Positions 25,217 to 62,673 of a DNA stretch of 64,000 nt are shown here, piece after piece. A program made the position numbers and the translations under genes. Origin of the DNA: an uncultured Nitrospiraceae bacterium (lineage in GTDB: Bacteria; Nitrospirota; Thermodesulfovibrionia; Thermodesulfovibrionales; Dissulfurispiraceae); contig CAVPIW010000010.1 in assembly GCA_963705105.1 (NCBI GenBank), positions 160,001 to 224,000 on the forward strand. The letters run 5' to 3'. Numbering within the stretch: position 1 is the first letter of the stretch; every line of letters starts with the position of its first letter. Below the pieces are notes generated by a model. It saw only the letters and a list, made by a program, of their open reading frames with translations. It was not told the DNA's origin and ran no database searches.

Positions 25217-25261
25217 TGTAACATTCCTGTAACATTCCTGTAACATTGGAAATGGTATGCT
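25217..25261 (+). promoter_or_regulatory. Pho-box-like promoter 1
   Basis: TGTAACATT at 25217, 25228, 25239 (11-bp period); TGG-TATGCT -10 at 25256. Confidence 0.8.
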
Positions 25262-25290
25262 TATCTAATTTCAAAGTGAGGTGTCATTCA

Positions 25291-25500
25291 ATGGAGAAGA
25301 GCTACCTCTTGTGCCCCTACCTGAAAGGATCCGTCGACGGCGCCCTCTGCAATGTTGTCAGGGATTTCATCAAGAAAATGGATGATGTGGACATCCGCAT
25401 GTGCATGGGCAGGCATTTCGAGTCCTGCTATTTCTACCATATGAAGATCAGGAGCGCCATTGCCGCCCATTCCTGCGGGCCCGCGCTCGAACTCAACTGA
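25291..25500 (+). CDS. Small four-Cys protein, paralog 1
   Basis: GAGGTG RBS; CPYLKGSVDGALC-x17-C-x7-CYFY. Confidence 0.7.
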   Translation: MEKSYLLCPYLKGSVDGALCNVVRDFIKKMDDVDIRMCMGRHFESCYFYHMKIRSAIAAHSCGPALELN

Positions 25501-25556
25501 AGGGTCTTTCGAAAACTGAATAATCTCCTTTTTTCCCGGGGAATCGCCGCGTCATC

Positions 25557-26792
25557 ATGAACTCCCGATTCCTCTGGGGGGTTGCAACCTCCGCTTTTCA
25601 GCTCGAAGGCTCCCCTTATGCCGACTGGTCGTCCTGGGACCTCTCCGTCGGTGACAACCCCGACATCACGGACCATTACAACCTCTACCGGCAGGACCTT
25701 CGCCTGCTCAGGGCCCTCGGGGTCAACGCCTATCGCTTCTCTCTCGAATGGAGCAGAATCCAACCCGGTCAGGACGCCTGGGACCGGAAGGCCATCGACC
25801 ATTACCAGGAGATGATCGACATCCTCAACGACCACGGCATCGAGCCCATGGTCACGATCCACCACTTCACCCATCCCCTCTGGTTCATACAGCGGTACCC
25901 CTGGCACGACGACAAATCCGTCGACTGGTTCCTCCGGTACGTCGACAGGCTTATGGCGTCGGTCCGGGACGTCAAATACTGGATCACCTTCAACGAGCCC
26001 TACGTGCTCCTCCTCGGCGGCTATCTCGAAGGGTGCATGCCGCCCGGCCTGAGAGATGCGGACCTCGCCCTTGCGGCCCTGAAAAACATTCTGACATGCC
26101 ATGGACGTGCCTATGAGATCATTCACAGCCGCCGTCCCGACGCGCTGGTGAGCGTCGCCCACAACATGGCCGCCCTCGCTCCCTGGCGCCGGTGGAACCC
26201 CCTCGACAGGGCACTTGCAACGATTGCCGGCTCCTTCTACAACCACTCCCTGCTCGACGCGTTCAAGTCCGGCAGCGTCCACGTGAAATTCCCCTTCCGC
26301 AAGGCCACCGACATGATGGTGCCGATTCAGGGGAAGCTCGATTTTTTCGGCATCAACTATTACACCAGGGTGCACCTGCGGTTCAATCCCCTGAAAAAGA
26401 TGGGCGTCGAACTCCGGCACAGGGATATCGACGGATACGGCCTGACGGACCTCGGATGGGAAATCCATCCCCATGGCCTCGATCATGTCATCAGGCAGGC
26501 ATCGGGTCTCGGCGTTCCCATGATGATCACCGAGAACGGCATTGCCACCCATGACAGTCGGAAGAAGATACGGTTCATGAAGCGCCACGTGGACGTCATT
26601 GAAAAATGCATAAAGAAGGGATTCGACATCAGGGGATATTTTTACTGGTCCCTCATCGACAACTACGAGTGGCTCCAGGGTCTCGATGCCCGGTTCGGCT
26701 TGTACACCGTCGATTACTCGACCCTCCGGCGCCGTCCCACCACGGCAGCCACATACTATTCCTATCTCATCAGAAGCAGGTCTTTCACGTAG
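25557..26792 (+). CDS. Glycoside hydrolase family 1
   Basis: FLWGVATSAFQLEG, YRFSLEWSRI, TFNEP acid/base, ITENG nucleophile, WSLIDNYEW. Confidence 0.93.
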   Translation: MNSRFLWGVATSAFQLEGSPYADWSSWDLSVGDNPDITDHYNLYRQDLRLLRALGVNAYRFSLEWSRIQPGQDAWDRKAIDHYQEMIDILNDHGIEPMVTIHHFTHPLWFIQRYPWHDDKSVDWFLRYVDRLMASVRDVKYWITFNEPYVLLLGGYLEGCMPPGLRDADLALAALKNILTCHGRAYEIIHSRRPDALVSVAHNMAALAPWRRWNPLDRALATIAGSFYNHSLLDAFKSGSVHVKFPFRKATDMMVPIQGKLDFFGINYYTRVHLRFNPLKKMGVELRHRDIDGYGLTDLGWEIHPHGLDHVIRQASGLGVPMMITENGIATHDSRKKIRFMKRHVDVIEKCIKKGFDIRGYFYWSLIDNYEWLQGLDARFGLYTVDYSTLRRRPTTAATYYSYLIRSRSFT

Positions 26793-26848: not shown

Positions 26849-26926
26849 CGCAACACACCTGTAATCAAGTCTTCTTCATTTCGTAACCGCCTCTTAATCC
26901 TGCCGTAACCAAGACTTTTGTATCAT
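26849..26926 (+). promoter_or_regulatory. Pho-box-like promoter 2
   Basis: CGCAAC 26849, TGTAAT 26860, CGTAAC 26882, CTTAAT 26893, CGTAAC 26904; TATCAT at 26921. Confidence 0.7.
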
Positions 26927-26934: not shown

Positions 26935-27627
26935 ATGCTGCTTTGCGACTTTCACATTCACACCACTTATTCCGACGGCCTCGTCGACCTGAGGAGGACC
27001 GTCGATCTTTTCGGCCAGGCAGGTTTCGACGTCATCGCCATTACGGACCATGTGGTGAGCAGCAACGGGTCCTTCGGCAAGCTCGCCCGGACGTTCAAAT
27101 TCAGCGTCGATGAGCATAATTTCGGACGGTACGTGGAGCACATCCGCAAAGAGGCAGAGCGGGCCTGGACCAAATACGGCCTCCTGATCATCCCCGGCAT
27201 CGAGATCACAAAAAACTCTATCTCGGCGGAAAACTCGGCGCACATCCTGATCATCGACATCAAGGATTTCATTCCCGCCTCCTGGGGATACGATGAGATC
27301 TTTCAGGAGGCGAAGAGGCAGGACGCCCTCAGCATCGCCTGCCACCCCCACTACATGTCGGAATTCGCAGTCCGCGACACCCTCTATCTCTGGAAAAACC
27401 GTGACAAGTACGCTCCTCACATCGATGCCTGGGAGATCGCCAACAGGGATGACGTGTTCAACGTCATCAGCCTCAAGAAATACCCCTATATCGCCGGCAG
27501 CGATTTTCACCGTCCGCGCCATCTCTATTCATGGAAGACGCTGCTGAACTGCGACAAGGATGTGGAGTCCGTGAAACAGTGCATCCGCCACAACAGGGGC
27601 GTTGCCATCACTCTCTTCAGAAAATGA
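26935..27627 (+). CDS. PHP domain phosphoesterase
   Basis: DFHIHTTYSDG, AITDH, IPGIEIT, CHP, GSDFH. Confidence 0.9.
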   Translation: MLLCDFHIHTTYSDGLVDLRRTVDLFGQAGFDVIAITDHVVSSNGSFGKLARTFKFSVDEHNFGRYVEHIRKEAERAWTKYGLLIIPGIEITKNSISAENSAHILIIDIKDFIPASWGYDEIFQEAKRQDALSIACHPHYMSEFAVRDTLYLWKNRDKYAPHIDAWEIANRDDVFNVISLKKYPYIAGSDFHRPRHLYSWKTLLNCDKDVESVKQCIRHNRGVAITLFRK

Positions 27628-27860: not shown

Positions 27861-29075
27861 ATGGAGATATTCCTGATCTTTGCCGTCTTGTCCCTGTTCG
27901 CCCTGGTCGCCTATGGCCTGCAGATACGCGCCGCACGCGCAGTCCTGGTTGAGGAGAAGGCATCTGAAGCCGTGGCGGTCAGCCGTGACCGGACCTGTCC
28001 ACCCGTTTCGATCCTCAAGCCCCTCAAAGGGCTGGACGACAACCTCTTCGACAACCTCGAGAGTTTCTGTGTGCAGGACTACCCGGAATACGAGGTCATC
28101 TTCTCCCTTCAGGACAGGAACGACCAAGCCTGCAAGGTGGCCGAAAAGGTCAGGGAAAGGCATCCTGACAAAAACATCACCATCATCACGGAGAAAACCA
28201 ATGCGGGCCTCAACCCCAAGATAAACAACCTTATCCCGGCCTACCGCGTTTCCCGTTACGACCACGTTCTGATAAGCGACAGCAACGTCCTGGTCGGCAG
28301 GGACTATCTGCGGGAAATCATGGGCCGCATGGCCGATCAGCGTGTCGGCCTCGTCTCGAACCTCATCAAAGGCACGGGAGGACGCACCATCGGGTCCGTC
28401 CTGGAAAACCTCCATCTCAACTCCTTCATCATGGGGAGCGTCTGTTTTCTCGACCGGTCCCTGGGCATGCCCTGCGTCGTCGGCAAGTCCATGCTTTTCC
28501 GCAAGGACGACCTTGAAAAGATGGGCGGCCTGTGGTCCTTCAAGGATGTCCTCGCCGAGGATTACATGATGGGCAAAAGGATGCATGAAGCGGGCAAGAA
28601 GGTCGTGCTGTCCGGCTACATGGTGCAGAATGTGAATGATTACTGGGGGTTCCGCAGGTTCCTGAACAGGCACACGCGCTGGGGCAAGCTGCGCTGGAGG
28701 ATCGGCGGTATCAAATATGTGTCGGAGATCCTCACGAATGCGGTCTTCCTCTCCTCCATGCCCCTCATCTTCTGGGAGACGTCCCTCATGACATGTTCCC
28801 TCGCGGCGGCCGTGAGTTCGGTGAAGATCATGGGAGACCTCTACATCGGCAGAAAAATTCAGGCAGGCATGAACAGCGCGCTCTATCTCCTCTCGCCGGT
28901 CAAGGATCTCATCATCGGCATCCTTTGGTTCATCCCCCTCTTCAGCAGGACCGTCGTCTGGCGGGGCAACAGGTACTCCGTCGGGAAGGATTCCGTTCTC
29001 TCGCCCTGCGGTGCCGCCGCTACCCGGGATAGAAGAAGCCGTCTGATCGTCGCCATCAGGACACGTTTCGCCTGA
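27861..29075 (+). CDS. GT2/GT21 membrane glycosyltransferase (ceramide glucosyltransferase/HpnI-like)
   Basis: VSILKPLKGLD, QDYPEYEV, NPKINNL, ISDSNV, LAEDY, RHTRW; N- and C-terminal TM helices. Confidence 0.88.
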   Translation: MEIFLIFAVLSLFALVAYGLQIRAARAVLVEEKASEAVAVSRDRTCPPVSILKPLKGLDDNLFDNLESFCVQDYPEYEVIFSLQDRNDQACKVAEKVRERHPDKNITIITEKTNAGLNPKINNLIPAYRVSRYDHVLISDSNVLVGRDYLREIMGRMADQRVGLVSNLIKGTGGRTIGSVLENLHLNSFIMGSVCFLDRSLGMPCVVGKSMLFRKDDLEKMGGLWSFKDVLAEDYMMGKRMHEAGKKVVLSGYMVQNVNDYWGFRRFLNRHTRWGKLRWRIGGIKYVSEILTNAVFLSSMPLIFWETSLMTCSLAAAVSSVKIMGDLYIGRKIQAGMNSALYLLSPVKDLIIGILWFIPLFSRTVVWRGNRYSVGKDSVLSPCGAAATRDRRSRLIVAIRTRFA

Positions 29076-29145: not shown

Positions 29146-29200
29146 TGTAACGCAATTGTAAAGTCCGCTTCATCTTCCTGTAACCGGGCTTCCCTAAAAT
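29146..29200 (+). promoter_or_regulatory. Pho-box-like promoter 3
   Basis: TGTAAC 29146, TGTAAA 29157, CTTCAT 29168, TGTAAC 29179; TAAAAT at 29195. Confidence 0.7.
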
Positions 29201-29317: not shown

Positions 29318-31075
29318 ATGAAAGACTTCGCAAAACGCACACTGAGCACGGCCCTCGGCGCCCTGCTCACCCTGTCCCTGGCCGCTGCCCCGGCCCTGAG
29401 CGCAGACGACAAGCCTTTCCAGAAGAAGAACACCAAGTGGACGTCCGGCGACTTCCACCAGCACACCCTCTACACCGACGGATCGACGACCTTCGACTTC
29501 GTCATGGGCAAGAGCAACGAGTTCGACCTCGACTGGTGGGCCAACTCAGAGCATGGAGGGGGCAGAAACAGGGACGGCAACGGTCTTTTCTGGGATGCAC
29601 GAAATCCCAACCCCATCGTTGGTTGTCCGGCCGCGTCCGGAGGGCACCAGATCATGTGGCGCTGGCAGAGCCTGCGTGACTTCGTGTACCCTGACATCCT
29701 CCGGAACCGCTCCCTCTATCCTGAGAAAAAGATCTTTTCCGGCTTCGAGTGGAACGTGCCCGGTCACGAGCACTGCAGCACCGGCATCGTGGCCGACGAT
29801 GCAAGCGCCATCAGCGCCTTCGAGTACATGTTCGACGCGTCCGACAACGACATAAGCCGGAATGGAGAGGTAACACCTTACGGGATTCTCCAGAAGATGA
29901 ACGGCAGGACGTATGTCGGCTGCACTGGAGCAAGCAAGTCCTTCCCCGATAGACATGCCGATGCCGTCAGGGGCTGCGCCTGGATGCAGGATCAGTATAA
30001 ACCGGCAGTTCCCGGAAAGGCGACGATAGACAACGGCTGGATCGTCTTTGCCCACATCGAGCGCGACGGTTCCTGGAACCTCGTCAGCGGCGGCGGGTAC
30101 AACGTCGAACACTTCCGTGATTTCAACAACGCCGGTCCCGACGTGTGCTTCGGCTTCGAGGGGGCGCCCGGGCACCAGGTCAACAATGACCGCGGTTTCG
30201 GCAATGCAGTCACCTGTGATGCTTCGGGCGTCTGCACCTCCGACGACTTCGGCGGCACCTACGGAGGAGCAGGATTCTACACGGCAAAGGTCGGCGGCCT
30301 CTGGGACGCGCTTCTCGGTGAGGGCCGCAGGTGGTTCAACTTTGCCAGCTCCGACTACCACCGCCACTATACGGCAGGAGGCGACGACTTCTTCCCCGGG
30401 GAGTACCAGAAGAACTGGGTAAAGGTTGTCGACACGAACGCCGACGGCGACTATGACCTGAACGAGATCGCAAACGGCCTCCGCTCGGGCAACGTGTTCC
30501 ACGTCATGGGAGACCTCATCAGCGTCCTGGAGTTCAATGCAAAGTCCCGCGATCAGGAAGTCGAGATGGGCGGTGAGCTGAAGGCCGGCAAACCGATCAA
30601 CAATCTTCAGATCAAGATCAGGTTCAAGAGCCCCGTGATGAACAACTGCGCCGTTGACGGCGCCTTCATCACTTCCTGCGTTTCGCCCGTCGTCGATCAT
30701 ATAGATCTGATCGCCGGTGAAGTCACGGGCAAGGTCGATCCGTCAAGCCCTGAATACATGAATGCAATGAACCCGACGGCAAAAGTCATCGCCAGCTTCA
30801 CCGGCAAGGACTGGGAGAAGGACGACGAGGGCTACAACGTGATCGTTCACCACATCAAGGATGTGAACAGGAGCATGTATTTCAGGCTCCGCGGCACGAA
30901 CGTGCCCTGCGGTACGGAGTTCGAGACGAATCCTGCCACCCCGCTGCCCTCGGCCGACTACTGCAGCCCGCTGGCCGACGCGCTCGTGACGCAGAACATC
31001 GGCATCGACGGCGCGCAGGAGGCGTGGAACGACCTCTGGTTCTACTCGAACCCCATTTTCGTCTACGTAAAATAG
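29318..31075 (+). CDS. Secreted PHP-fold metallohydrolase, putative phosphoesterase
   Basis: Signal peptide; GDFHQHTLYTDG, NSEHGG, GFEWNVPGHEH, FAH, SSDYH, C-terminal WFYSNPIFV. Confidence 0.75.
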   Translation: MKDFAKRTLSTALGALLTLSLAAAPALSADDKPFQKKNTKWTSGDFHQHTLYTDGSTTFDFVMGKSNEFDLDWWANSEHGGGRNRDGNGLFWDARNPNPIVGCPAASGGHQIMWRWQSLRDFVYPDILRNRSLYPEKKIFSGFEWNVPGHEHCSTGIVADDASAISAFEYMFDASDNDISRNGEVTPYGILQKMNGRTYVGCTGASKSFPDRHADAVRGCAWMQDQYKPAVPGKATIDNGWIVFAHIERDGSWNLVSGGGYNVEHFRDFNNAGPDVCFGFEGAPGHQVNNDRGFGNAVTCDASGVCTSDDFGGTYGGAGFYTAKVGGLWDALLGEGRRWFNFASSDYHRHYTAGGDDFFPGEYQKNWVKVVDTNADGDYDLNEIANGLRSGNVFHVMGDLISVLEFNAKSRDQEVEMGGELKAGKPINNLQIKIRFKSPVMNNCAVDGAFITSCVSPVVDHIDLIAGEVTGKVDPSSPEYMNAMNPTAKVIASFTGKDWEKDDEGYNVIVHHIKDVNRSMYFRLRGTNVPCGTEFETNPATPLPSADYCSPLADALVTQNIGIDGAQEAWNDLWFYSNPIFVYVK

Positions 31076-31147: not shown

Positions 31148-31202
31148 TGTCACGCAATCTTCACCTTCCTGAAATACTCCTGTAACATCCCTCTGGTAAT
31201 CT
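31148..31202 (+). promoter_or_regulatory. Pho-box-like promoter 4
   Basis: TGTCAC 31148, CTTCAC 31159, TGAAAT 31170, TGTAAC 31181; TGG-TAATCT at 31197. Confidence 0.7.
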
Positions 31203-31446: not shown

Positions 31447-31644
31447 ATGTGCCCCAACTTCAATCTTATCGAGGGGATCTGCGAACTGGCCGGGATCGAG
31501 CCGTCGCGGATCGGCTGCGTCGGCGAGTGCACGTGCTTCTGCAACGACTGGGACGAGTGCAGGGTCTATGAGTCCCAGTTCGTGCTGCATTGCGAGGAAT
31601 ACAGTCATTTCCTCGCGGTGACGGAATTTGTAACGGAATTGTAA
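31447..31644 (+). CDS. Small four-Cys protein, paralog 3
   Basis: Starts 3 bp after paralog 2; CPNFNLIEGIC-x17-C-x7-CRVY with extra Cys residues. Confidence 0.7.
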   Translation: MCPNFNLIEGICELAGIEPSRIGCVGECTCFCNDWDECRVYESQFVLHCEEYSHFLAVTEFVTEL

Positions 31645-31688
31645 CAATCCCGTAATCAGCCTGTAAAAGTAATGTGTTTCAATATAAG
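31629..31688 (+). promoter_or_regulatory. Pho-box-like promoter 5
   Basis: TGTAAC 31629, TGTAAC 31640, CGTAAT 31651, TGTAAA 31662; -10 less clear. Confidence 0.7.
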
Positions 31689-38140: not shown

Positions 38141-38195
38141 ATGTTACCCGACCCCTGTTACAGAAATGTTACGGGAGCGTTACATGTGCGTTACA
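38141..38195 (-). promoter_or_regulatory. Pho-box-like promoter 6 (minus strand)
   Basis: GTTAC at 38157, 38168, 38179, 38190 on the plus strand; minus-strand TAACAT -10 at 38146-38141. Confidence 0.75.
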
Positions 38196-38288: not shown

Positions 38289-38761
38289 TTATTCCGGCTT
38301 CGACTTGAGAAAAACGTTGAAGGCATACCAGAATGCGGTATACCACGCCGGAGCGGCGAAGTTGCCCTTCGCGATCTGGTAGACGCCGATCCCGAGGAGG
38401 GAAAGAAAGGACAGAGTCCAGAGGTCGATCGCGCCGCCCGTCAATCCCTTTATCTTGCTGTTCAGTTCCGTCATTTCCCCCGACACCTGCAAACGCAGAC
38501 TGCCGGGTCTGTCTTCCATGACCTTAAATATGCGTTTCGTTTGCGCCTTTCTGATGATGGTATCGGCCTCGGCGGGATGGGTGAACAAAAACAGAATACT
38601 TCCGGTAATCGGATTCGTCATAACACTTTCGATGCCGGGCACATTGGAAAACCGGTCCGGCAGTGAGAAGAAAAAAGAAGAATCCCCCCTTTTCCCGGGA
38701 CCCTGATCCTCAGTCTCCCGGGCATCCGGTGAACGATAAAGGCGGTTGGAAGATCAGCCAC
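38289..38761 (-). CDS. HMA2 domain membrane protein, one-base frameshift in a homopolymer near 38688
   Basis: IVHRMPGRLRIRVP | FSNVPGIESVMTNPITGSIL...APAWYTAFWYA across two frames. Confidence 0.7.
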
Positions 38762-39044
38762 CCTGGGGGCCTCCCTCGACTGTATCGGGACTGATCTGCG
38801 TCTGCTCCTCCGCCATTTCCGCCTTTGCCTCGGCGACGATGTCCTCAACCATCTCCCCGACTTCCGCAAAGGTCTCCTTGCCTCTTTCGTACAGCATCAA
38901 CCCGCCCTTTATGGCAGCCTTGGCGAGCGGTTTCGCGATGCTCGCAACGACGGGTACGACGACCGGTGCCAGTACGGACGTGCCGATGCCTATGGCGAGG
39001 CCGGTCAGTATGTTGCCCTTCAAACCATTATCAAAGAGTCCCAT
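38754..39044 (-). CDS. DUF5132 family protein
   Basis: GLAIGIG..VLAPVVVP...KPLAKAAIKGG..LYE....FAEVGE..EDIVAEAKAE; GGAGG RBS. Confidence 0.8.
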   Translation of the reverse strand: MGLFDNGLKGNILTGLAIGIGTSVLAPVVVPVVASIAKPLAKAAIKGGLMLYERGKETFAEVGEMVEDIVAEAKAEMAEEQTQISPDTVEGGPQGG

Positions 39045-39199: not shown

Positions 39200-39255
39200 C
39201 TTCATGAAACTGTAACGCAGATGTCATCATCCTGTAACGGACCATATGTTTTAAT
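39200..39255 (+). promoter_or_regulatory. Pho-box-like promoter 7
   Basis: CTTCAT 39200, TGTAAC 39211, TGTCAT 39222, TGTAAC 39233; TTTAAT at 39250. Confidence 0.75.
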
Positions 39256-48637: not shown

Positions 48638-48692
48638 GTTACCTCCTTTGTGCTGTGCCTGTGTGCTTGATATGAAGTGACGAAATCAGGCT

Positions 48693-49265
48693 TCATCCCC
48701 GGTTCACGCCTTTGTGGATATCCACATCCCCTATCCTCTCCTGTGCGAGGCCGGCCCTGGCGGCGATAATAAATTCCGCGAATTCCCTGAAGGCCCCGTG
48801 ACCGCCGGGCAGGGAGCAGACGAAATGAACCGCAAAAAGGGTTTCCCTGAAGGCGTCACGGGGACAGGCGGACAGTCCGACGCGTTTGATGACGGACAGA
48901 TCGTTCGTGTCGTCGCCGATGAACGCCACCTCGTGCGCCTCAAGACTCCGCTTTCTGAGGATCCGCTCCAGCACTTCCAGCTTGTCCCTGACGCCCAGAT
49001 GCAATTCACTGATTCCCAGTTTCTCCGCCCTCTTCCTGACAGAGCCCGACAATTCGCCGGTGATGATCCCCGTCTCAACGCCGGCGATATCGCGCAGCCT
49101 TTCCACACCCATGCCGTCGCGGATCGAAAACCGTTTCAGCATTTCTCCTCCGTCCCCATAGTAGACACCCGTATCGGTCAGGACGCCGTCGACGTCGGTC
49201 AGGAGCAGTCGGATCCACCGTGCCCTGTCAGCCACTGCCTTTCTGCGATGAAACTCACGGTTCAC
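48693..49265 (-). CDS. KdsC/YrbI family HAD phosphatase
   Basis: TDVDGVLTD, RFSIRDGMG, AFIGDDTND, GGHGAFREF. Confidence 0.9.
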   Translation of the reverse strand: MNREFHRRKAVADRARWIRLLLTDVDGVLTDTGVYYGDGGEMLKRFSIRDGMGVERLRDIAGVETGIITGELSGSVRKRAEKLGISELHLGVRDKLEVLERILRKRSLEAHEVAFIGDDTNDLSVIKRVGLSACPRDAFRETLFAVHFVCSLPGGHGAFREFAEFIIAARAGLAQERIGDVDIHKGVNRG

Positions 49266-50065
49266 AGGGCCGTCCACCCCCCATCGACGATGAGGTTCGC
49301 CCCTGTCATATAGCATGATGCTTCGCTTGCAAGGAAGACGACGGCCCCCCGGTAGTCGCAGGGGCTCGCCATGCGCCGGAGAGGCGTCTTGGCGCAGTAA
49401 TTCCTGACGAAGTACGCGTCCTGGCCGTTCTCCACACCGCCCGGCGAGAGCGTATTGACGCGGACGCCGCATTCGCCCCAGTAGGAGGCGAGGAATTTCG
49501 TGAAGGCGATGACTGCGCCTTTGCTCGTCGGATAGGCCGGTGACTTGTGAAAAGGCTGTTCTCCCGAAGGTTTGCGGTAAATGGACTGGTCGGGAGCGAC
49601 GACGCCGTACGTGGACGCGATATTGATGATGCTCCCCTTTCCTCTTTCAGCCATATGAGAGCCAATCGCCTGGGAACAGAGGAACAGCCCCGTAACGTTG
49701 ACATCCATGACGGCCTTCCACATGGCGAGGGGATAATTCTCGAAACGGGACAGTTCGGCGGCGAGATGGGGGTCTTCGAATTTTTCATTGATCGCCGCAT
49801 TGTTGATGAGGATGTCGACACCGCCGAAACGCCCGATCGCCTCTTGGAGGAGATGCCGCACCGCCGTTGCGTCCGTCACGTCGACGGCGACCCCCAGCCC
49901 TTCCGGCTCGAATTCTGCGGCGAACTCCCGGCACTTTTTCCCGTCGGTGTCGCAGGCCACCACATGGGCGCCCGCTTCCGAGAGGGCCAGGCAATGCTCT
50001 CTGCCCAGCAGGCCCAGCGCCCCGGTGACGACGGCGACCTTACCGTCCAGTGAGAACTGCTTCAT
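49262..50065 (-). CDS. SDR family oxidoreductase
   Basis: VTGALGLLG, LINNAA, YPTSK catalytic motif, NLIVDGG. Confidence 0.9.
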   Translation of the reverse strand: MKQFSLDGKVAVVTGALGLLGREHCLALSEAGAHVVACDTDGKKCREFAAEFEPEGLGVAVDVTDATAVRHLLQEAIGRFGGVDILINNAAINEKFEDPHLAAELSRFENYPLAMWKAVMDVNVTGLFLCSQAIGSHMAERGKGSIINIASTYGVVAPDQSIYRKPSGEQPFHKSPAYPTSKGAVIAFTKFLASYWGECGVRVNTLSPGGVENGQDAYFVRNYCAKTPLRRMASPCDYRGAVVFLASEASCYMTGANLIVDGGWTAL

Positions 50066-51404
50066 GGTCCTCTTTTTTCCTCGGCTTGATGTTGAAATTC
50101 CCGGTCCGCCGGAAGACGGGCTCCACAGGCTCTCCCCGGAGGCATTCTCTGACGTTGTTCTCCTCCAGGGCGGTCCCGAGCATGGGAAGCACTTTACTGT
50201 AAATTTCGAGGAGATACTCTATGTCCTCGTTGCCGTGGGAGAAGCTGACGGCGTGAAACCCCGACCAGAGGACGCCGTGCCTGAAGAGTTCCTGCTGGAC
50301 ATATGACTTCATAACAAGGGGGTCCCCGGCAGCGCCGTCGAAGGTGACGAGGGTGCGCGCATCGGGTCCGATACAGCGTGTGTATTCCATGTCGAGGTTC
50401 CGGGCAATCCTGTTGTAGCCGTCTTTGAGCTTCCTGCCCTGTCGCGCAAGGTGGCCTGGCACGTCTTTTTCCCTCATCTCCTGTATGGTCGCCCGGGCTG
50501 CCGCAAGGGACAATGCCTCACCTCCGAAGGTGGTGTAGAAGAAGACGTCCCTTTCGAGGAGCGCCATGATCTCCCTCTTTCCCGCAAGCACCGAGAGGGG
50601 CATCCCGTTTGCGATCGCTTTCGAGTAGCAGACGAGATCGGCCCTGACGCCGTAATATTCCTGCGCGCCGCCGAGGGCGATGCGAAATCCCGTCCACATC
50701 TCGTCGAAGATGAGGACGATGCCCGTCCTGTCGCAGATCTCCCGCAGCACGCCGAGGAAGTCGTCCTTCGGCTCTTCGAACGCGACGGGTTCGAGGATGA
50801 TACAGGCCGTATCGTCGTCGATCGAATCGATGACGGACGCGGGATCATTGTAGGCGAAGGTGAAGGTGAGGTCCTTCATGGCTTTCGGCACTCCCCTGTT
50901 CCTGTCCGTCACGGCGATGTACCAGTCATGCCACCCGTGATAGCCGCAGCAGAGCACCTTTTCCTTCCCCGTATATGCCCTCGCAAGGCGGACGGCGGCC
51001 GAAGTGACATCGGCGCCCGTCTTGCTGAAACGGACGGCCTCGGCTGAGGGGACGACGGAGCGGATCAGCTCCGCCACCTCCACTTCGAGGGGGTGCATCA
51101 TGGAAAAGGTGATGCCGTGAGCAAGCTGCTGTCTGATCGCTTCGTCCACGGCCGGGTAGCAGTATCCGAGGGAGAGGGGCCCCACGGCCATGGTGAAGTC
51201 GAGGTATTCGTTTCCGTCGGCGTCCCATACCCGGGCTCCCTGGCCCCTGGTCAGATACTTCGGCGCCACTCTCCTGATATACTGAGTCGGCCCTTTCGCC
51301 AGTGTCTGCGTCACGCCGGGGATGATTTGAAGCGCCCTCTCGTAGAGCTCCTCCGACCTGTCTACGGCTGGATAGTCTTCATTGAATCCGATGCTGTTCG
51401 GCAT
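50040..51404 (-). CDS. Class III aminotransferase (GSA-aminomutase-like, sugar pathway type)
   Basis: WDADGNEYLD, GYHGWHDW, LIFDEMWTGFR, SKAIANG, TTFGG. Confidence 0.88.
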   Translation of the reverse strand: MPNSIGFNEDYPAVDRSEELYERALQIIPGVTQTLAKGPTQYIRRVAPKYLTRGQGARVWDADGNEYLDFTMAVGPLSLGYCYPAVDEAIRQQLAHGITFSMMHPLEVEVAELIRSVVPSAEAVRFSKTGADVTSAAVRLARAYTGKEKVLCCGYHGWHDWYIAVTDRNRGVPKAMKDLTFTFAYNDPASVIDSIDDDTACIILEPVAFEEPKDDFLGVLREICDRTGIVLIFDEMWTGFRIALGGAQEYYGVRADLVCYSKAIANGMPLSVLAGKREIMALLERDVFFYTTFGGEALSLAAARATIQEMREKDVPGHLARQGRKLKDGYNRIARNLDMEYTRCIGPDARTLVTFDGAAGDPLVMKSYVQQELFRHGVLWSGFHAVSFSHGNEDIEYLLEIYSKVLPMLGTALEENNVRECLRGEPVEPVFRRTGNFNIKPRKKEDHEAVLTGR

Positions 51405-52314
51405 GGGACCTCCCTCCCTTTTTGTATTCGAAAATGCGACCTGCAAGTTTCTGCCCCGTCATGCCGGCATGATCGAGGACCTCCTCCAGGAGGGCGGGCC
51501 TGAACCAACTGTTTTCGAGGGATACGGGCAGGACATCGCACATCAGGCCGTTGCTGATGAGGACCTCACAGACTATGCCGTACAGACCGCCCGTCTTGAA
51601 ATGATCCTCAACGGTGACGATGAGGTCTGTCTCCTCGGCGGCGGAAAGGATGACCTCTTCGTCGACGGGCTTGACGGTCCTGAGATTGATGAGACGGACC
51701 GACGAGCTTGTCCGCTGAAGGATCTCCGCTGCTGCAAAGGCCTCGCTGAGGAGCATCCCGTACGTGATGATCGTTATGTCCTCTCCGGCAGAGATGACCT
51801 CGGCCTTGCCGATCCCGAATGCAGGATCATGGGTGACGGCCGGCTTCCTGTGATTCAGTCTGATATAGCAGGGGTGGGGGCTCAGCAGGAGGGTCCGGAG
51901 CCCGATGACGAGGTCTTCCTCATCGGCGGGACAGAAGATCTGCATATTCGGGATCATGCGCATGAGCGCCACGTCCTCGAGGGCCTGGTGGGTCGGCCCG
52001 TTCGCCTCGGAGAGAAACCCGGGAACGCCTCCGCAAAGCTTGACCGGCAGGTCCGGCAGGCCCACGTCGGTCCGAATGAACTCAAAGGCCCTCATGGTGA
52101 GGAAAGCGCTCAGCCCGTGCACGACGGGGATGCGCCCCCTGAGGGCGAGTCCCGCCGCCGTCCCGATGAGAGCCTGCTCCGTGATCCCCGTATCGATGAA
52201 GCGGTTACCCAGGTCCGGTATGATGTCCCGTATGGAGATCCTGTTTTCGGCGGTGAGGACGACAAAGCGGTCATCGGACAACACGATGTCCCGCAGGGTT
52301 TCCTGATAGCTCAT
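51379..52314 (-). CDS. Transketolase C-terminal subunit
   Basis: GITEQ..IG.AAGLA, RAFEFIR, GPTHQALED, TVKPVD, VEDH. Confidence 0.9.
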   Translation of the reverse strand: MSYQETLRDIVLSDDRFVVLTAENRISIRDIIPDLGNRFIDTGITEQALIGTAAGLALRGRIPVVHGLSAFLTMRAFEFIRTDVGLPDLPVKLCGGVPGFLSEANGPTHQALEDVALMRMIPNMQIFCPADEEDLVIGLRTLLLSPHPCYIRLNHRKPAVTHDPAFGIGKAEVISAGEDITIITYGMLLSEAFAAAEILQRTSSSVRLINLRTVKPVDEEVILSAAEETDLIVTVEDHFKTGGLYGIVCEVLISNGLMCDVLPVSLENSWFRPALLEEVLDHAGMTGQKLAGRIFEYKKGGRSHAEQHRIQ

Positions 52315-52315
52315 A

Positions 52316-53173
52316 TCACCTCACCCCCGCCGTCTCGGGCGTGCAGCGGCCGCCGGATGCCGCTCTCAAGTCGCCGATGAGACCTTCCGCTTCTTCTTCG
52401 GTGAAGTTGCAGAACCAGCGGTCTATCCGGTACTCGAGGCTCGGCACCCCCTTGCCCCTGATCGTTTCGGCGATGACGACGCTCGGCGACCCCAATTCGA
52501 AGGGAGCGAGCTGAAAAGCCCTCTCGATGTCCCTGAAGTCATGGCCGTCCACAATCATCGTCGCGAGGCCGAAGGACCGGAACTTTTCATCGAGCGGTTC
52601 GAGCGGAAGAAGCGACTCCGTCTTCCTGTTCGCCTGGACACGGTTTCTGTCAACGACGATGATCAGGTTCTCCAGGCCCAGCGCGCGCGCCACGAGAAAA
52701 CCCTCCCAGTTGGACCCTTCATTGAGCTCCCCGTCTCCCACGATGACGACGACCCTGTTCCTCCCTTCCCTCATTTTGCAGTCGAGGGCGACTCCTGTCG
52801 CGACGGGGACGAGATGCCCGAGGGAGCCGGCGTGGAACTCGACGCCCGGAATGCCCCTGTTGGGATGCCAATATATGTCGTCTGCGGTGGTGAGGTGATT
52901 CTTCAGCCGCTCTTTTTCGAGTATGCCCGCCTCTGCAAGGGCCGCATAGAGGGCCGGGACGGCGTGACCTTTCGAGAGAAAGAGGTAATCCCGGGAGGGG
53001 TCATCGAGCAGATCGGGCCGCACGCGAAGGAAGGAGCCGTATAGATACACGAGCAGATCGGCGCAGGAGAGGGCCGATCCGGCAAAGGCGCCTCCGTTCC
53101 TCGACATGCCGATAATACTTTCCCTCACCCTGAGGGCGGTCTCCTTCAGCCTCATTAATTCCTGACGTTCCAT
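52316..53173 (-). CDS. Transketolase N-terminal (TPP-binding) subunit
   Basis: LSKGHA, GSLGH, GDGELNEGSNWE, VDGHD, TIRGKG. Confidence 0.9.
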   Translation of the reverse strand: MERQELMRLKETALRVRESIIGMSRNGGAFAGSALSCADLLVYLYGSFLRVRPDLLDDPSRDYLFLSKGHAVPALYAALAEAGILEKERLKNHLTTADDIYWHPNRGIPGVEFHAGSLGHLVPVATGVALDCKMREGRNRVVVIVGDGELNEGSNWEGFLVARALGLENLIIVVDRNRVQANRKTESLLPLEPLDEKFRSFGLATMIVDGHDFRDIERAFQLAPFELGSPSVVIAETIRGKGVPSLEYRIDRWFCNFTEEEAEGLIGDLRAASGGRCTPETAGVR

Positions 53174-53186
53174 CTTGTCTCCTTTC

Positions 53187-54020
53187 TCACCCTATCGTCT
53201 TGAGTTCTTCACGGTGATGCATGTACCAGCCTGTGCCGAGATATCCGGCGTTCCTGCTCCTGATGTGCGGGTGGTCGTCAAGAAAACGCAGGATATCGCC
53301 GATGCCGAACAGGGGATTCTCCCTTGAGAGATGCTCATAGACCGGGCTGATGACATCGTAGTCCTCCCGGTAGTCGAGGACCCAGCGGTACGTCATCGAA
53401 TAGTTCAGTCCCAGCTCCCATGCGACGTTGCCGATGCGGAAACGGCCGGGGTTGTCCCAGATGAAAGGTGTCGTGTGCTCCCGTTCAAAGCCCCTCGATG
53501 CCTCGCGCCAGGCCGTCTCAAGGACTCCCATGTGCATTGCTTCCACATCGTTCCCGTCCGGGTAGGTCTGGGGATGAAGGTTGCTGACGTAGTCGTAGTG
53601 GCGGCGATGGCGGAGAAAATAGAGGATCACCCTGTCGACGACGCCGGGGTCGATGAGCGGGCAGTCCGAGGGAATCTTGACGACCACATCGGCGCCGAAG
53701 GACCGGGCCGCCTCATAGTGCCGGTCCAGAAGGTCCGTCGGATGGCCCCTGAAGCAGGGGATGCCCTCATAATCGCAGATCCGCTCGATGATGACGTCTT
53801 CGGGCAGGACCGTCGTGGCGACGACGACCTCACCTGCCGACAGCGACTCCTTTACCCTTTCAACCATCCTCACGAAGGACGGCTTGCCTCCCAGGGGCTT
53901 CAATACCTTTCCCGGGAGTCTTGTCGACCCGGTCCTTGTCTGGATGACGGTGACGACCTTGAGAAGCGACAGGTCGCCGCCTGCCGACGAAGTCTTCTTC
54001 CCTCCCTTTCGCCCATTCAT
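53187..54020 (-). CDS. SpsF/KdsB-like cytidylyltransferase family protein
   Basis: IQTRTGSTRLPGKVL, DCPLIDP, YPDGNDVE, REHTTPF. Confidence 0.85.
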   Translation of the reverse strand: MNGRKGGKKTSSAGGDLSLLKVVTVIQTRTGSTRLPGKVLKPLGGKPSFVRMVERVKESLSAGEVVVATTVLPEDVIIERICDYEGIPCFRGHPTDLLDRHYEAARSFGADVVVKIPSDCPLIDPGVVDRVILYFLRHRRHYDYVSNLHPQTYPDGNDVEAMHMGVLETAWREASRGFEREHTTPFIWDNPGRFRIGNVAWELGLNYSMTYRWVLDYREDYDVISPVYEHLSRENPLFGIGDILRFLDDHPHIRSRNAGYLGTGWYMHHREELKTIG

Positions 54021-54967
54021 TCGAGCATCTCCCTGCAGACGCCGGCGATGTTGCCCGCCGATGTCCCCCTGTTTTGAATGGGCGACAGTTCCCGGAGCGT
54101 ATCGACGTCGAAATAGGAATGCACCTCTTTTCCGAGGGAGATGCCTGTAAAAGCGAGGGAGGAGTACTGCGTGACAAGGACGTCGCAGTTCGCCACCATG
54201 TGGTGCGCATTGCCGTCGGCATAGACGAGGGCGCCTGGTGCATGTCTCCTGATCTCCCGCGCGGACCGGGAGACATTTTCATTGGGGTGGAGCTTGAAAA
54301 TGAGCTTTCTCCCTTCGGCTATTTCGGCGGCCCGGCGGATGAATTTCTTTCTCCTGTCGATCTTGAAGGTCTCCCGCGCATCCGACGTCGCTGCAAGGAC
54401 GTGCCCTTTGTGGGGGAAATCATTGTCCATGTATTGCTCGGCATGGTCGAAGTTCGGGATGCCCGTGACGACTATGCGGTCGGCTTTCACCCCTTTCCGG
54501 ATGAAGAGGTCCCGGTATCCCTCGGATGCGACACAGAAGCGTTCGTATGCATGGGAAAGACCCGCCGTCGACGTGCTTGCCAGGTATCGCGGCAGTTTCA
54601 GGTGTTTGACGGCATGGTAGGCCAGGTTTTCCGGGTCCGTCATTCCTTCCTGGACGAGGATCACTTTTTTGTTCCTGATATTTTTCTGGACGATCAAATC
54701 CGAGCAGGTCAGCACGAGATGATAGTCGTCCCTGATGCCCCCTTCATCGATCAGGCAGCGGTGTTCCCTCAGGTACTCCACGGTCAGCCTCCGCATGTTC
54801 CCGCCGAGGACGGTGAAATCGAGATAGCCTGCTTTCGAGAATTTACCGATCAAGCCGTCTCCGTAGAAGGGTGAAAACCGGCATTCGTATTCTTCCAGAT
54901 GCTCCGCTATCTTGTGCATCTGCGTCGTCTGATTGAGGGAGCCGCAGATGAAGAGGATTTTTTTCAT
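54017..54967 (-). CDS. Hypothetical GT-B fold protein (glycosyltransferase or epimerase-like)
   Basis: VVTGIPNFD, IFKLHPNE, DVLVTQYSSLA motifs; start reassigned to MKKILF because the longer ORF runs through a repeat. Confidence 0.65.
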   Translation of the reverse strand: MKKILFICGSLNQTTQMHKIAEHLEEYECRFSPFYGDGLIGKFSKAGYLDFTVLGGNMRRLTVEYLREHRCLIDEGGIRDDYHLVLTCSDLIVQKNIRNKKVILVQEGMTDPENLAYHAVKHLKLPRYLASTSTAGLSHAYERFCVASEGYRDLFIRKGVKADRIVVTGIPNFDHAEQYMDNDFPHKGHVLAATSDARETFKIDRRKKFIRRAAEIAEGRKLIFKLHPNENVSRSAREIRRHAPGALVYADGNAHHMVANCDVLVTQYSSLAFTGISLGKEVHSYFDVDTLRELSPIQNRGTSAGNIAGVCREMLE

Positions 54968-54981: not shown

Positions 54982-55059
54982 ATGATACCGGACGGGGTGT
55001 TACAGGAATATTAAGGCACGATGAAAGGTAGGTGAAAGTATTGTTACAGGAATGTGAAC
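54982..55059 (-). promoter_or_regulatory. Pho-box-like promoter 11 (sugar pathway operon)
   Basis: Plus-strand GTTACA 54999, ATTAAG 55010, ATGAAA 55021, GTGAAA 55032, GTTACA 55043, GTGAAC 55054; minus-strand TATCAT -10 at 54987-54982. Confidence 0.75.
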
Positions 55060-55289: not shown

Positions 55290-56660
55290 TTACAGGAGCA
55301 ATGCCCCTCTCTCGGCGAGGCGTGACCTGACACTCTGCCTGAGGTTGAGGAAACAGAAATTCCTCTCGTTGATGAAACGGCTGATCAGAAAGGCAAGGCC
55401 GTTGCTCTTCTTGTCCAGGTAGGGCGTATCGATCTGGTCGAGGTCTCCCGTCAGGACGATCTTCGTGCCCTCGCCGCAGCGGGTGACGATGGTCTTGATA
55501 TCGATGGGCCTGAGGTTTTGCGCCTCGTCGATGATGAAATACCGCCTCGGCAGGCTTCTCCCGCGGATGTACGTCAGGGGCTCCACCTGGAGGAGGCCCG
55601 CATCGATCAGGTACTGGTAGCTCTTCATGTTCGACAGATCGATGCGGTCTTTCACCGCATCCCTGCAATTGCCGATGATCGCCTCCAGATTGTCAAAGAT
55701 CGGCTGCATCCAGGGCCTGAGCTTCTCCTCCACATCGCCGGGGAGATAACCGAGGTCATTTCCGAGAGGGATCACCGGCCGCGACACCATCACCTGGTCG
55801 TAGAGTGACGACTTCCTCGTCATTTTCGCCGTCTGGTGCAGTCCCGCCGCAAGGGCCAGAAAGGTCTTGCCCGTCCCCGCGCGGCCAGTGAGCGCGACGA
55901 TGTCGATATCGGGATCGATAAGCGCATCGATCGCGCATTCCTGCTCGATATTCTTCGGCGAGATGCCCATGATCTCCTTGCCGCGCTTGACCGGTTTCAG
56001 CGACATCTTGTCGTTTATCCTCTGCACCGTATCGCCGGAGTGAACATATCGGGCCGACCTGATGCCGTTGAGAGACTCGTTTTCGCAGAGCACACGCCCG
56101 TACATCTCGTAAATCGAGGTCTTGTCGTCCCGGTAGTCTTCCGCCGCAAGACCGAAGGATTCCGCCTTGATCCTGACGGCCATATCCTTCGATACGATTT
56201 TCACCGCCACCGGATCCCCCCGGTCGTCCCTGAGGTCTTTTTCTGCGATGCTCAATGCCGACCTGATGATGCGGTTGTCCTCGACGGACCCGTCGGAAAA
56301 GAGCTCGCAGGACTCACTCAGAGAGGCGCTCACCGACATCATGCCTCCCTGACCCACGGGGATGCCTGCCGAAAGGGACCCCCTTTCTCTCAGCGCGTCG
56401 ATGATTCTCAGAGAAAGCCTCGCAGACGCTGCGATCTCCCCGTGACCCTTTTTCAGCCTGTCCAGCTCCTCGATGACGGCAAAGGGGATAACGACGTGGC
56501 TGTCACTGAACTTGAAGATTGAGTGCGGGTCATGGACGAGGACGTTCGTGTCGAGGACGAAAATCCTCCTCTCCGCATCAGGTGCACGAAGGCGACGAAG
56601 ATTGACGGCTGTCGCATCATTTTTCCTGCACATCGTCTCCATACAGGCGGCATCGTTCAT
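55290..56660 (-). CDS. phoH: PIN-PhoH family ATPase (PhoH2/YlaK type)
   Basis: FVLDTNVL PIN start, GRAGTGKT, LGYLPGDVEEK, YIRGRSL, IIDEAQNL, TGDLDQID. Confidence 0.9.
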   Translation of the reverse strand: MNDAACMETMCRKNDATAVNLRRLRAPDAERRIFVLDTNVLVHDPHSIFKFSDSHVVIPFAVIEELDRLKKGHGEIAASARLSLRIIDALRERGSLSAGIPVGQGGMMSVSASLSESCELFSDGSVEDNRIIRSALSIAEKDLRDDRGDPVAVKIVSKDMAVRIKAESFGLAAEDYRDDKTSIYEMYGRVLCENESLNGIRSARYVHSGDTVQRINDKMSLKPVKRGKEIMGISPKNIEQECAIDALIDPDIDIVALTGRAGTGKTFLALAAGLHQTAKMTRKSSLYDQVMVSRPVIPLGNDLGYLPGDVEEKLRPWMQPIFDNLEAIIGNCRDAVKDRIDLSNMKSYQYLIDAGLLQVEPLTYIRGRSLPRRYFIIDEAQNLRPIDIKTIVTRCGEGTKIVLTGDLDQIDTPYLDKKSNGLAFLISRFINERNFCFLNLRQSVRSRLAERGALLL

Positions 56661-57049: not shown

Positions 57050-57105
57050 ATTATCGCACGGGTGGTGTTACAGCAATATTACGTTTTGGAAACAATTCGA
57101 TGAAA
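57050..57105 (-). promoter_or_regulatory. Pho-box-like promoter 12 (phoH)
   Basis: Plus-strand GTTACA 57067, ATTACG 57078, ATGAAA 57100; minus-strand GATAAT at 57055-57050. Confidence 0.55.
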
Positions 57106-60636: not shown

Positions 60637-60644
60637 TGGTGAGA

Positions 60645-60912
60645 CTTTCCGGAAAAGGCGGGGCGAAGTGCCCCGCTTTTTCACGCAACGCAACGGTAGG
60701 CAGGAGCCTGACGACAAATGCACGACGGGAAGGCTGATGTGGTGAAAAGCCTTTCCTCTAAGATACCTAATTGATCACCAGACCACCCTGTGCCGTGTCG
60801 ACCGATGACGAATGCCCGTCAGGCAAGAGGCGCTGAACACCTGGAAAAGTCTCATCATCGCATTGGAAAGGCTTTGAACCATATCTGCCTTCCCGGGGGC
60901 CTATGCAACAAC
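60645..60912. repeat. Intergenic repeat, inverted copy of the 7845-8045 core
   Basis: GGGAAGGCTGATGTGGTGAAAAGCCTTTCC...CGCATTGGAAAGGCTTTGAACCATATCTGCCTTCCC. Confidence 0.8.
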
Positions 60913-60915
60913 GGT

Positions 60916-62673
60916 TCATGCAACGGGCAGGTATATCTTCACCTTCGTGCCTTTTCCGAAGGCGCTCTCGATCTTCATCTCCCAGCCATGGGCCCTGACG
61001 AGGTGCTTGACGATGGCGAGACCGAGGCCGGTGCCGCCCATGGTCCTGGAGCGGGCGGGGTCGACGCGGTAGAAGCGCTCTCCCAGTCTCGGCAGGTGCT
61101 TCTGCTGAACGCCGATACCTGTATCCCGCACGAAGAGGACGAGCCGCCCCGCGTCCTCTTCGGCTCCCAGGGTGATTTCGCCCTTCTCCGTGAATTTGAT
61201 CGCATTGTCGACGAGATTGGTCAATATCTGGATGAGCCTGTTCCTGTCCGCCTGTATCGTGCCGATGCCCTCCGGGAAGGATGTCCCGACGGCGAGCCCC
61301 TTTTCCGCCGCCTTGCTCCTGAGAAGGGCCAGCACAGTGTCGGCGACGTCGATGATGTCGATTTCCGCTTTCTCGACCTTGATGACGCCGAGCTCTATCC
61401 TGGATATCGTCATGAGGTCGTTAATGAGGCTGTTGATCCGCTCGCTGTTCGCCTTGATCATCCCGGCGAACCTGATGGCGTTCTCCCTGTCGTCAATGGC
61501 CCCTTCGAGCAGCGTCTCGGCGAACCCCCTGATGGCCGTTATGGGCGTCTTCAGTTCATGGGAGACGTTGGCCACGAAGTCCTTCCTGATCTCCTCGAGC
61601 TTTTTCATCTGCGTGATGTCGTGAAGAACGGCGACGAATCCTGCGAGGTCGCGGTCACGGTAAAACAGAGGTGACACCTTGGCGACCAGGTATCTCTCAT
61701 CGGGGAGGTCGAGCTTGAGCTGGACCGATGCCGGCGAGAGGCTGGTCCTGACATGATCCACGAGGTCCGCAAAATCGTGGCTCCTCACGAGTTCCAGGAA
61801 CTGCTTTCCCGCCGGGTCGGTATTGCCGAAATACTCCGACGACGAGGCGCTCGACAGCAGGACCGTCCCCTTCGAGTCGGTGATGAGGAGGGCATCGGGC
61901 ACGCTCTTGAGGATCAGGCCCAGGCGGTTCTTCTCCTCTTCCTTTTCGCTCATGACGGATTTCAGCTTTTCCGTCATGGTATTGAAATTACGGGCGATCT
62001 CCTCGAATTCCCGTCCCCCTTTCAGGAAAAGCTTCCCGCTGAAATCCCCCCCGGCGAGGGACTGGGAAAACCCCCTCATCTCGCCGATCAGCTTCCTGAG
62101 CCGTTCTATCTGGAGGATGGAGAGGATGCCCGTCGACAGCAGGACGATGCTGACGATGACGATGAGCATGAATCTTAGATCGTTGACGGCACGGTCGATC
62201 TCTTCGAGAGGGACCGCCATCCTGATGAAGCCCTGAACGTCTCCGTCTCTCGTTATTCTCCTGGCGATATAGAGATAGTCATGCCTCGTCGTCTCGCTGA
62301 GTCTGACCGAAATCCCTGTGGCCGAGAGAAGAGCTTCGACGATCTCGCTCCTGCCGGCATGATTCTCCATCTGCGACGAATCGGTGTCCGAATCGCCGAT
62401 GACCACCCCGTCACCCCTGATAACGGTGATCCGGGCGCCTGTCGTCTCCTTCAGCCTCTTGCAGAGGTCGTCGATCTTTCCCTGCCCGAAGGGGACGATA
62501 TCTTCGAGAAGTCCGAGCTGGACGACGAGGCTTTTCTTCAGGTCCTCTTCCCGCCTCTCCCTGACCGCCTCGGTGATGAATATCTCGATCAGGGCGATTG
62601 ACAGGACGGTGAGGATCACGTAGATCAGGATGATCCGTGTCAGCATGTCTCTTTTCATCTTGAATAAAATCAT
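60916..62673 (-). CDS. phoR: Phosphate regulon sensor histidine kinase (HAMP-PAS-HisKA-HATPase)
   Basis: MENHAGRSEI, RKDFVANVSHELKTP, NLVDNAIKF, ERFYRVDPARSR..GGTGLGLAIVKH. Confidence 0.9.
   Translation of the reverse strand: MILFKMKRDMLTRIILIYVILTVLSIALIEIFITEAVRERREEDLKKSLVVQLGLLEDIVPFGQGKIDDLCKRLKETTGARITVIRGDGVVIGDSDTDSSQMENHAGRSEIVEALLSATGISVRLSETTRHDYLYIARRITRDGDVQGFIRMAVPLEEIDRAVNDLRFMLIVIVSIVLLSTGILSILQIERLRKLIGEMRGFSQSLAGGDFSGKLFLKGGREFEEIARNFNTMTEKLKSVMSEKEEEKNRLGLILKSVPDALLITDSKGTVLLSSASSSEYFGNTDPAGKQFLELVRSHDFADLVDHVRTSLSPASVQLKLDLPDERYLVAKVSPLFYRDRDLAGFVAVLHDITQMKKLEEIRKDFVANVSHELKTPITAIRGFAETLLEGAIDDRENAIRFAGMIKANSERINSLINDLMTISRIELGVIKVEKAEIDIIDVADTVLALLRSKAAEKGLAVGTSFPEGIGTIQADRNRLIQILTNLVDNAIKFTEKGEITLGAEEDAGRLVLFVRDTGIGVQQKHLPRLGERFYRVDPARSRTMGGTGLGLAIVKHLVRAHGWEMKIESAFGKGTKVKIYLPVA

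Follow-up and report, generated by a model that had tools for sequence, protein, structure and literature searches.

The DNA considered here is a 64,000-nucleotide stretch (the window) from an uncultured bacterium of the Nitrospiraceae (GTDB family Dissulfurispiraceae; contig CAVPIW010000010.1, positions 160,001 to 224,000, or G000:C10:160001-224000, where G000 is the host assembly of 4.23 Mb in 19 contigs, rated 99.36% complete). It holds a gene island in which twelve arrays of short repeats precede genes for phosphate uptake (pstS and pstCAB-phoU, all above their family cut-offs), putative envelope-sugar enzymes, a cation pump and several small proteins, and it also encodes a long PhoR-like kinase (Table 1). 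We argue below that these arrays are very likely to be pho boxes. The public sequencing runs that best contain the host genome are freshwater sediment metagenomes. Two small contigs of the assembly, G000:C1 and C3, look like contaminants by gene content and by guanine-plus-cytosine (GC) fraction (0.455 and 0.672).

Phased repeat arrays nearly confined to one block

All twelve arrays that the original prediction had placed in this DNA were recovered at their coordinates and on their strands, with three to six units at an 11-bp period, and every array is directed at its downstream gene. The proposed consensus, TGTAAC, accounts for 21 of the 50 units counted, the more general form being (T/C)(G/T)T(A/C)A(C/T), and the phasing is strict: all 26 pairs of YGTAAY hexamers lying less than 60 bp apart in the island are spaced by 11, 22, 33 or 44 bp. 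A unit matrix was then applied to the whole assembly, and array loci were counted at a score above 17 for the 11-bp period and, as controls, for periods of 9, 10, 12 and 13 bp. The 11-bp scan returned 13 loci, 12 of them between window positions 25000 and 57300; none lay in the first 25 kb, as first noted, and none after 57300. The motif is thus not equally common elsewhere, a single strong locus, on another contig, lying outside the island. The control periods yielded 2, 0, 4 and 1 loci genome-wide, respectively, and none in the island, and the reversed genome yielded none. With a four-unit matrix, the twelve arrays and the outlying site (G000:C5:623689) scored 27-56 and the next locus 15.6; upon leave-one-out, no locus outside the island except G000:C5:623689 ever outranked the held-out array. 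A matrix made from the two pst arrays alone placed ten of the twelve island arrays and the C5 site in its top 11, and 16 of the 17 matches to a two-mismatch pattern in the host genome were inside the island. Chance or low complexity as the origin of the arrays is ruled out by the period, reversal and leave-one-out controls. The phased repeat arrays are therefore real and nearly confined to one block.

The block is shorter than the 37 kb first proposed, as the arrays cover 25217-57105 (31.9 kb) and the earlier end at 62673 had been set by the array-less phoR. The idea that nearly every operon in it carries an array holds for 12 units (25.6 kb) and fails for four (7.2 kb); no array was found before the DUF5132/HMA_2 unit, an RhlB-like helicase gene, the M4 peptidase gene or phoR (upstream scores of -21 to -6, with -21 the best for phoR). 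GC content across the window ranges from 0.52 to 0.63 in 2-kb steps without any contrast between the island and the rest, and a recent foreign island was therefore rejected on composition. There were no Rfam matches in 24000-64000.

The arrays also have the geometry of promoters. In line with the prediction that most are followed by a -10 element, a TAnnnT hexamer begins 16-17 bp beyond the final repeat in eight of the twelve (shuffled sequences gave a mean of 0.47 and a maximum of 5 in 20,000), while the best match to a -35 hexamer in those eight reaches at most 3/6. In these arrays, then, the repeats take the -35 position with the -10 at a fixed distance, an arrangement that fits PhoB sites, which overlap the -35 element at Escherichia coli phoA (PMC3348028) and consist of repeated 11-nt units (PMC4415409). 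The PhoB consensus of Desulfovibrio vulgaris, validated by electrophoretic mobility shift assay (EMSA), is (c/t)GT(n)AC (PMC3333781), and both TGTAAC and CGTAAC fit it.

Conservation of the arrays was assessed by footprinting orthologues in relatives, where an array score of at least 17 upstream of a homologue was counted and the reversed sequence served as control (0 in all rows); as the relatives are kin, counts across them are not independent samples. Arrays precede 49 of 85 pstS homologues (reversed control, 0/85), including those of relatives that have phoB, and stand before the first gene of the sugar-acid operon (10/13), the gene for the PHP-family phosphoesterase (6/6), that for Cys4 mini-protein 1 (5/7) and those for the repeat protein (2/4) and HMA_2c (2/5), and are absent before the internal gene phoU (0/60) and before metK (0/4) and DUF5132 (0/4). 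A strict pattern matched 32 of 43 relatives and the control matched none. The relative G066 (99% complete, 6 contigs), which has neither phoR nor phoB, gave no match even at two mismatches. Clustering, too, recurs: matches fall mostly within 1.54-1.70 Mb in G048, four of six lie within 10 kb in G008, and several clusters occur in G049. Because matches are clustered in these genomes as well, clustering is a habit of the family, the host genome being the tightest of the four genomes with matches.

Support also comes from outside the island. The thirteenth array, G000:C5:623689, has TATCAT at +16 and lies 313 bp upstream of a pyrophosphatase-like gene, the 553-residue product of which we take, from its N-terminal motifs, to be a DHH-family manganese pyrophosphatase. 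That a phosphate gene was found by a matrix not trained on it supports the pho-box reading.

The missing PhoB and the reading of the arrays

Taken together, these results make it very likely that the twelve arrays are pho boxes, through which PhoB would switch on twelve units at low phosphate, with phoB probably in an assembly gap beside aroB. The PhoB interpretation offered in the original prediction thus stands on geometry, gene content, orthologue conservation, the C5 site and the match to a validated box, and falters on the regulator, no phoB having been assembled. By analogy with known PhoBR systems, PstSCAB-PhoU would signal to PhoR, which would phosphorylate PhoB; two or three PhoB dimers, bound head to tail on an array, would then bring sigma-70 polymerase to a promoter devoid of a -35 element. 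The output would comprise phosphate uptake by Pst, scavenging by the candidate secreted metallohydrolase and the PHP esterase, replacement of envelope phosphorus by sugars (via the GH1-PHP-GT21 genes and the sugar-acid operon), cation handling by the pump cassette and a second regulatory layer formed by the DksA-like paralogue, the Cys4 mini-proteins and PhoH2.

Several observations weigh against this interpretation. Neither phoB nor a remnant was found in the host genome by protein and DNA profiles (best match 140 bits, compared to 399-603 bits for controls), and none is present at three junctions (before phoR, between Cys4-4 and pstS, and between Cys4-1 and GH1) in independent public contigs from four runs: X1 record 8 bridges 62401-64000, X5 joins 62796 to 62899, X2 record 15 has 149 letters before pstS (147 in the host), and X1 record 1 bridges Cys4-1 to GH1. 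Of these runs, X1 may come from the very sample that yielded the host assembly. The gap that would hold phoB is itself inferred, not seen, and 12 of 51 relatives holding both genes do not have phoB beside aroB. Four arrays (31629, 39200, 40947 and 57105) lack TAnnnT at +16/17 and do not fit the promoter arrangement; arrays are weakly conserved before pstC (6/81), Cys4-2 (4/11) and phoH2 (4/15 loci); and 11 of the 43 relatives, nine of them with phoB, have no exact match to the strict pattern. The D. vulgaris box, as written, is a 6-bp repeat with a 4-bp spacer, i.e. a 10-bp period, one base off (PMC3333781). Finally, a relative's regulator reaches 278.1 bits against the TIGR02154 cut-off of 296.2, and the host's long kinase is below the NCBIfam PhoR cut-offs, although its orthologues adjoin phoB and pst. 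As the family cut-offs were missed, the names PhoB and PhoR rest on synteny and on a helix, RTVDVH[IMV]RRLR, present in 11 of 11 of the relatives' regulators.

The arrangement of phoB in relatives nonetheless points to where the host gene may be. In one relative (G005) the order is Cys4-4, phoB, phoR, box and pstS; in the host, Cys4-4 directly adjoins the pstS box, and phoR is 21 kb distant, on the opposite strand. A second, core location of phoB exists in the family, with the order aroK-aroB-phoB-short phoR, often followed by pit; in 39 of the 51 relatives holding both genes, phoB and aroB are no more than 1.6 kb apart. The family has two PhoR types, long and short, and extra phoB-like copies (a second or a third) occur within the phosphate islands of several relatives (L170 in G003, L171 in G001 and L122 in G023). 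Neither type of aroB was found in the host genome, although 53 of 57 relatives have aroB; there is no aroK orthologue (best match 31%), no transporter of the Pit or Na/Pi families and no ppk1. Since the usual neighbour aroB is missing along with phoB while aroC is kept, phoB probably lies in a gap, and one unassembled stretch would account for the joint absence of phoB, aroB, aroK and pit. Several contig ends are inside genes, and apart from a single 505-bp match in a tRNA region and shared mobile elements no overlap was seen between ends. A metagenome scan with PhoR yielded full-length matches of about 60-63% at best, none of them a close relative.

Alternatively, the arrays might be true pho boxes whose phoB has been lost together with aroB, aroK and pit, leaving a silent or weakly constitutive orphan regulon in an aromatic auxotroph. 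The failure of the profiles to detect even a remnant agrees with this, as does the lack of phoB before phoR (where 23 of 27 relatives have it), also in other strains; hundreds of intergenic repeats could drive deletions, and two box-region genes are frameshifted. However, phoB is present in all 45 high-quality family genomes with phoR (two genomes have neither), the arrays stay close to the consensus, phoR is intact, no phosphate transporter other than Pst was found and aroC is retained. Moreover, the two relatives examined in which the long phoR is an orphan, G004 and G069, keep phoB behind aroB. We consider loss very unlikely, the more so because aroB was found absent too. That a different regulator (the BaeR-like protein encoded on C12 or a protein outside the OmpR family) reads the arrays, perhaps in response to more than phosphate, appears very unlikely. 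PhoB is not assembled, and a weak 11-bp-phased CTTCAY array (three-unit score 14.7) beside the C12 two-component pair resembles degenerate units, but the four OmpR-type regulators of the host, presumably CusR-, BaeR-, CpxR- and KdpE-like, each adjoin their own kinase, lack the PhoB helix and fall outside the relatives' PhoB clade (support 97/98); the same arrays precede pstS in phoB-bearing relatives and are absent from the phoBR-less G066. The CTTCAY array (G000:C12:286828; L002:3115) is situated between the BaeRS-like pair and a Spy-like gene and is probably that regulator's own site.

We see still less probability in the suggestion that the arrays work only before pst and a few other genes, the remainder having decayed, acting as repressor sites or having been carried along by rearrangements. 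A PhoB site may have no regulatory effect (PMC4415409), four arrays have no canonical -10, and those at 40947 and 57105 are separated from the next gene by more than 430 bp that include repeat elements; against this, the complete geometry is present in eight of the twelve, and most arrays are found again before orthologues. Under the favoured reading, PhoB-driven pho boxes with phoB in a gap, a 99%-complete assembly can thus lack the regulator of its own regulon.

Predicted members of the regulon

Table 1. Features of the island and its surroundings, in window coordinates; -10 distances are from the last repeat.
Feature	Position	Strand	Remarks
Amidase and RHS fragment	2434-4091		
BrnA-type antitoxin	24703-24993		left edge of island
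Array 1	25217..25244	+	3 units, -10 at +17; heads Cys4-1 and GH1
Cys4 mini-protein 1 (Cys4-1), 69 aa	25291..25500	+	no Pfam family
GH1 glycosidase	25557..26792	+	NEP and ENG catalytic motifs present
Array 2	26849..26909	+	6 units, -10 at +17
PHP-family phosphoesterase	26935..27627	+	array before all homologues
GT21/HpnI-like glycosyltransferase	27861..29075	+	270.7 bits vs cut-off 310
Array 3	29146..29184	+	4 units, -10 at +16
CehA/McbA-like metallohydrolase	29318..31075	+	signal-peptide-like N-terminus; 45 bits, below cut-off 80
Array 4	31148..31186	+	4 units, -10 at +16
Cys4 mini-proteins 2 and 3	31237-31443, 31447-31644	+	
Array 5	31629..31667	+	4 units; overlaps stop codon of Cys4 mini-protein 3; TAnnnT absent at +16/17
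Double zinc-ribbon gene, two frames	31690-31994	+	
HMA_2 protein	31996-32367	+	
Second MetK-like copy	33041-34243	-	43% to other MetK copy
P2-type cation ATPase	34284-37352	-	
Ala/Val/Gly repeat protein	37362-38054	-	
Array 6	38157..38195	-	4 units, -10 at +16
DUF5132 and frameshifted HMA_2 gene	38289..39044	-	no own array
Array 7	39200..39238	+	4 units; TAATAT at +19 only
HMA_2 protein	39280-39534	+	
Cys4 mini-protein 4 (Cys4-4)	39554-39787	+	
Array 8, pstS promoter	39783..39821	+	-10 TATACT at +17
pstS	39897..40901	+	TIGR02136 above cut-off
Array 9	40947..40985	+	top-scoring; pstC begins 468 bp on, with repeat elements in the interval; TAnnnT absent at +16/17
pstC, pstA, pstB, phoU	41448..44744	+	all four above cut-off
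Array 10	46902..46940	+	4 units, -10 at +17
Second DksA/TraR-like gene	47020..47397	+	housekeeping copy at G000:C9:83405
Nine-gene sugar-acid operon	47400..54967	-	putative transferase, cytidylyltransferase, split transketolase-like pair, class III aminotransferase, SDR, KdsC-like phosphatase, NeuB-like synthase, SMR
Array 11	54999..55059	-	6 units, -10 at +17
PIN-PhoH (PhoH2-like) gene	55290..56633	-	
Array 12	57067..57105	-	4 units; GATAAT at +17; 439 bp before phoH2, repeat element between
M4-type peptidase with thrombospondin-3 repeats	57235-60636		divergent from array 12; 59% paralogue at G000:C6:995625
Long PhoR-like kinase, intact, 585 aa	60916..62673	-	Cache, HAMP, PAS, HisKA, HATPase; no array, no phoB in front
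GmrSD-type gene	from 62906 onward		beyond phoR

Envelope functions are prominent among the predicted members. The GH1, PHP and GT21 genes likely form a lipid-remodelling trio, as judged by analogy; the glycosyltransferase matches Pfam GT21 and scores below the HpnI cut-off (TIGR03472). The CehA/McbA-like protein, for which no match was found in the PDB, is a candidate secreted phosphoesterase. In the sugar-acid operon, the eight core genes occur in the same order, preceded by an array, in all five relatives fetched full length; the NeuB-like synthase matches Pfam NeuB and scores below the TIGR03569 cut-off (240 vs 399.65 bits). The first gene of this operon has a 56% paralogue, without a strong array, at G000:C6:702439-703380. 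The pump cassette consists of the repeat protein, the P2-type (calcium-type) ATPase and the second MetK-like copy, and is flanked by HMA_2 proteins.

Two further groups may act in regulation. The second DksA-like protein scores 68.8 bits against an NCBIfam cut-off of 105, has the C4 zinc finger and shows EEGD at the acidic tip of the coiled coil, where the housekeeping copy has DDGD. Arrays stand before its relatives at six of 19 loci, all in one genus, and not at the other 13, and the second DksA copies of G048 and G049 are likewise behind arrays. In a tree made without two loci (L278 and L318), the boxless copies form a clade with the housekeeping copy (98/96), and the island copy groups with the six box-headed ones at low support (81/34). 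The four Cys4 mini-proteins are paralogous and share the pattern CP-x-C-x-C-x-C; across 31 hand-picked sequences, the four cysteines and a single proline never vary. Their profile retrieved 699 clusters at E<=0.001, while no Pfam family matched more than one of the 31 members (best E 0.019). With Cys4-4 as query, a word-seeded homolog search returned only itself, the ESM Atlas nothing but Nitrospirota clusters without names (0.87-0.90), and an AlphaFold model (mean predicted local distance difference test score 72.8, core 84-89) had no fold match by Foldseek better than E 6, the best PDB sequence match for Cys4 having E 0.28. The mini-proteins may bind zinc. Cys4-like mini open reading frames (ORFs) without strong arrays also occur outside the island, at G000:C12:12850-13089, C12:42663-42860, C12:44298-44549 and C10:64545-64799. 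It is conceivable, but rather doubtful, that the island holds a whole starvation programme in one place with a second regulatory layer absent from the papers searched, in which a PhoB-induced DksA paralogue would retune RNA polymerase, the Cys4 proteins would be four zinc-binding small regulators, each with a subfamily of its own that is conserved behind pho boxes throughout these Nitrospirota, and an aminated sialic-acid-like sugar would replace envelope phosphate.

The island is interspersed with intergenic repeat elements resembling miniature inverted-repeat transposable elements (MITEs) or repetitive extragenic palindromes (REPs), present in 200-500 copies each genome-wide and varying between strains. 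In the window they occupy 27630-27860, 32400-33040, 41000-41445, 44745-45115, 46500-46900, 55065-55290, 56720-57000, 60640-60915 and 62714-62900; in the strain contig X5, the GmrSD gene is not preceded by such an element, and Cys4-1 is followed by one. As for the two frameshifted genes, the double zinc-ribbon gene (31690-31994) is one ORF in relatives and the X1 contig has one gap over the region, while at the HMA_2 gene (38289-38750) X2 differs by an indel and X1 does not.

Comparison with known phosphate regulons

Literature outside subscription journals gave no account of a Pho regulon in Thermodesulfovibrionia, of a Nitrospirota pho box, or of a Pho-controlled DksA or NeuB operon. For this family of uncultured, anaerobic Nitrospirota, the present analysis yields a model of the PhoB site that withstands cross-validation, together with a shortlist of candidate members, and it links, by prediction, phosphate starvation to the nine-gene sugar-acid operon, the DksA-like paralogue, the pyrophosphatase-like gene and the Cys4 family. 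The switch itself is ordinary, and its interest is that it probably connects a number of unstudied genes with phosphate starvation.

Akin to the E. coli Pho box and PhoB-PhoR system (PMC4415409, PMC3348028), the island has 11-nt direct repeats over the -35 position, a pstSCAB-phoU core and a PhoR-like kinase; in contrast to it, the unit is TGTAAC rather than CTGTCAT, arrays have three to six units, 12 of 13 strong sites lie within 32 kb, and phoR has neither a box nor an adjacent phoB. PhoB of the anaerobe D. vulgaris (DVU1083), studied by DAP-chip and EMSA, has a fitting consensus and the pstS operon as a target, whereas the other targets listed for it (DNA polymerase, gyrase and amino-acid transport) are unlike the members here (PMC3333781). 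The induction of sugar-based envelope parts by phosphate shortage, the likely role of GH1-PHP-GT21 and of the sugar-acid operon, is described for Agt and OlsF in Desulfovibrio alaskensis G20 (PMC5193443) and, as teichuronic-acid substitution, in PMC4415409, although the enzymes predicted here are different ones, GT21/HpnI-like and NeuB-like. Three HMA_2 proteins of the island, matched by Pfam, resemble the CoBaHMA domain (cysteine-free, HMA-like, with basic N-terminal strands) but are free-standing around a P2-type pump, unlike the domain in calcyanin, which is fused to a GlyZip domain (PMC8890360). Phosphate islands of marine HIMB59 likewise combine pst with phosphatases, a glycosyltransferase and often phoBR; they extend to at most 18.5 kb and are defined by gene content (PMC10734472), compared to 32 kb with twelve arrays here. 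Phosphate islands are thus already known, and the one described here probably belongs with the PhoB regulons.

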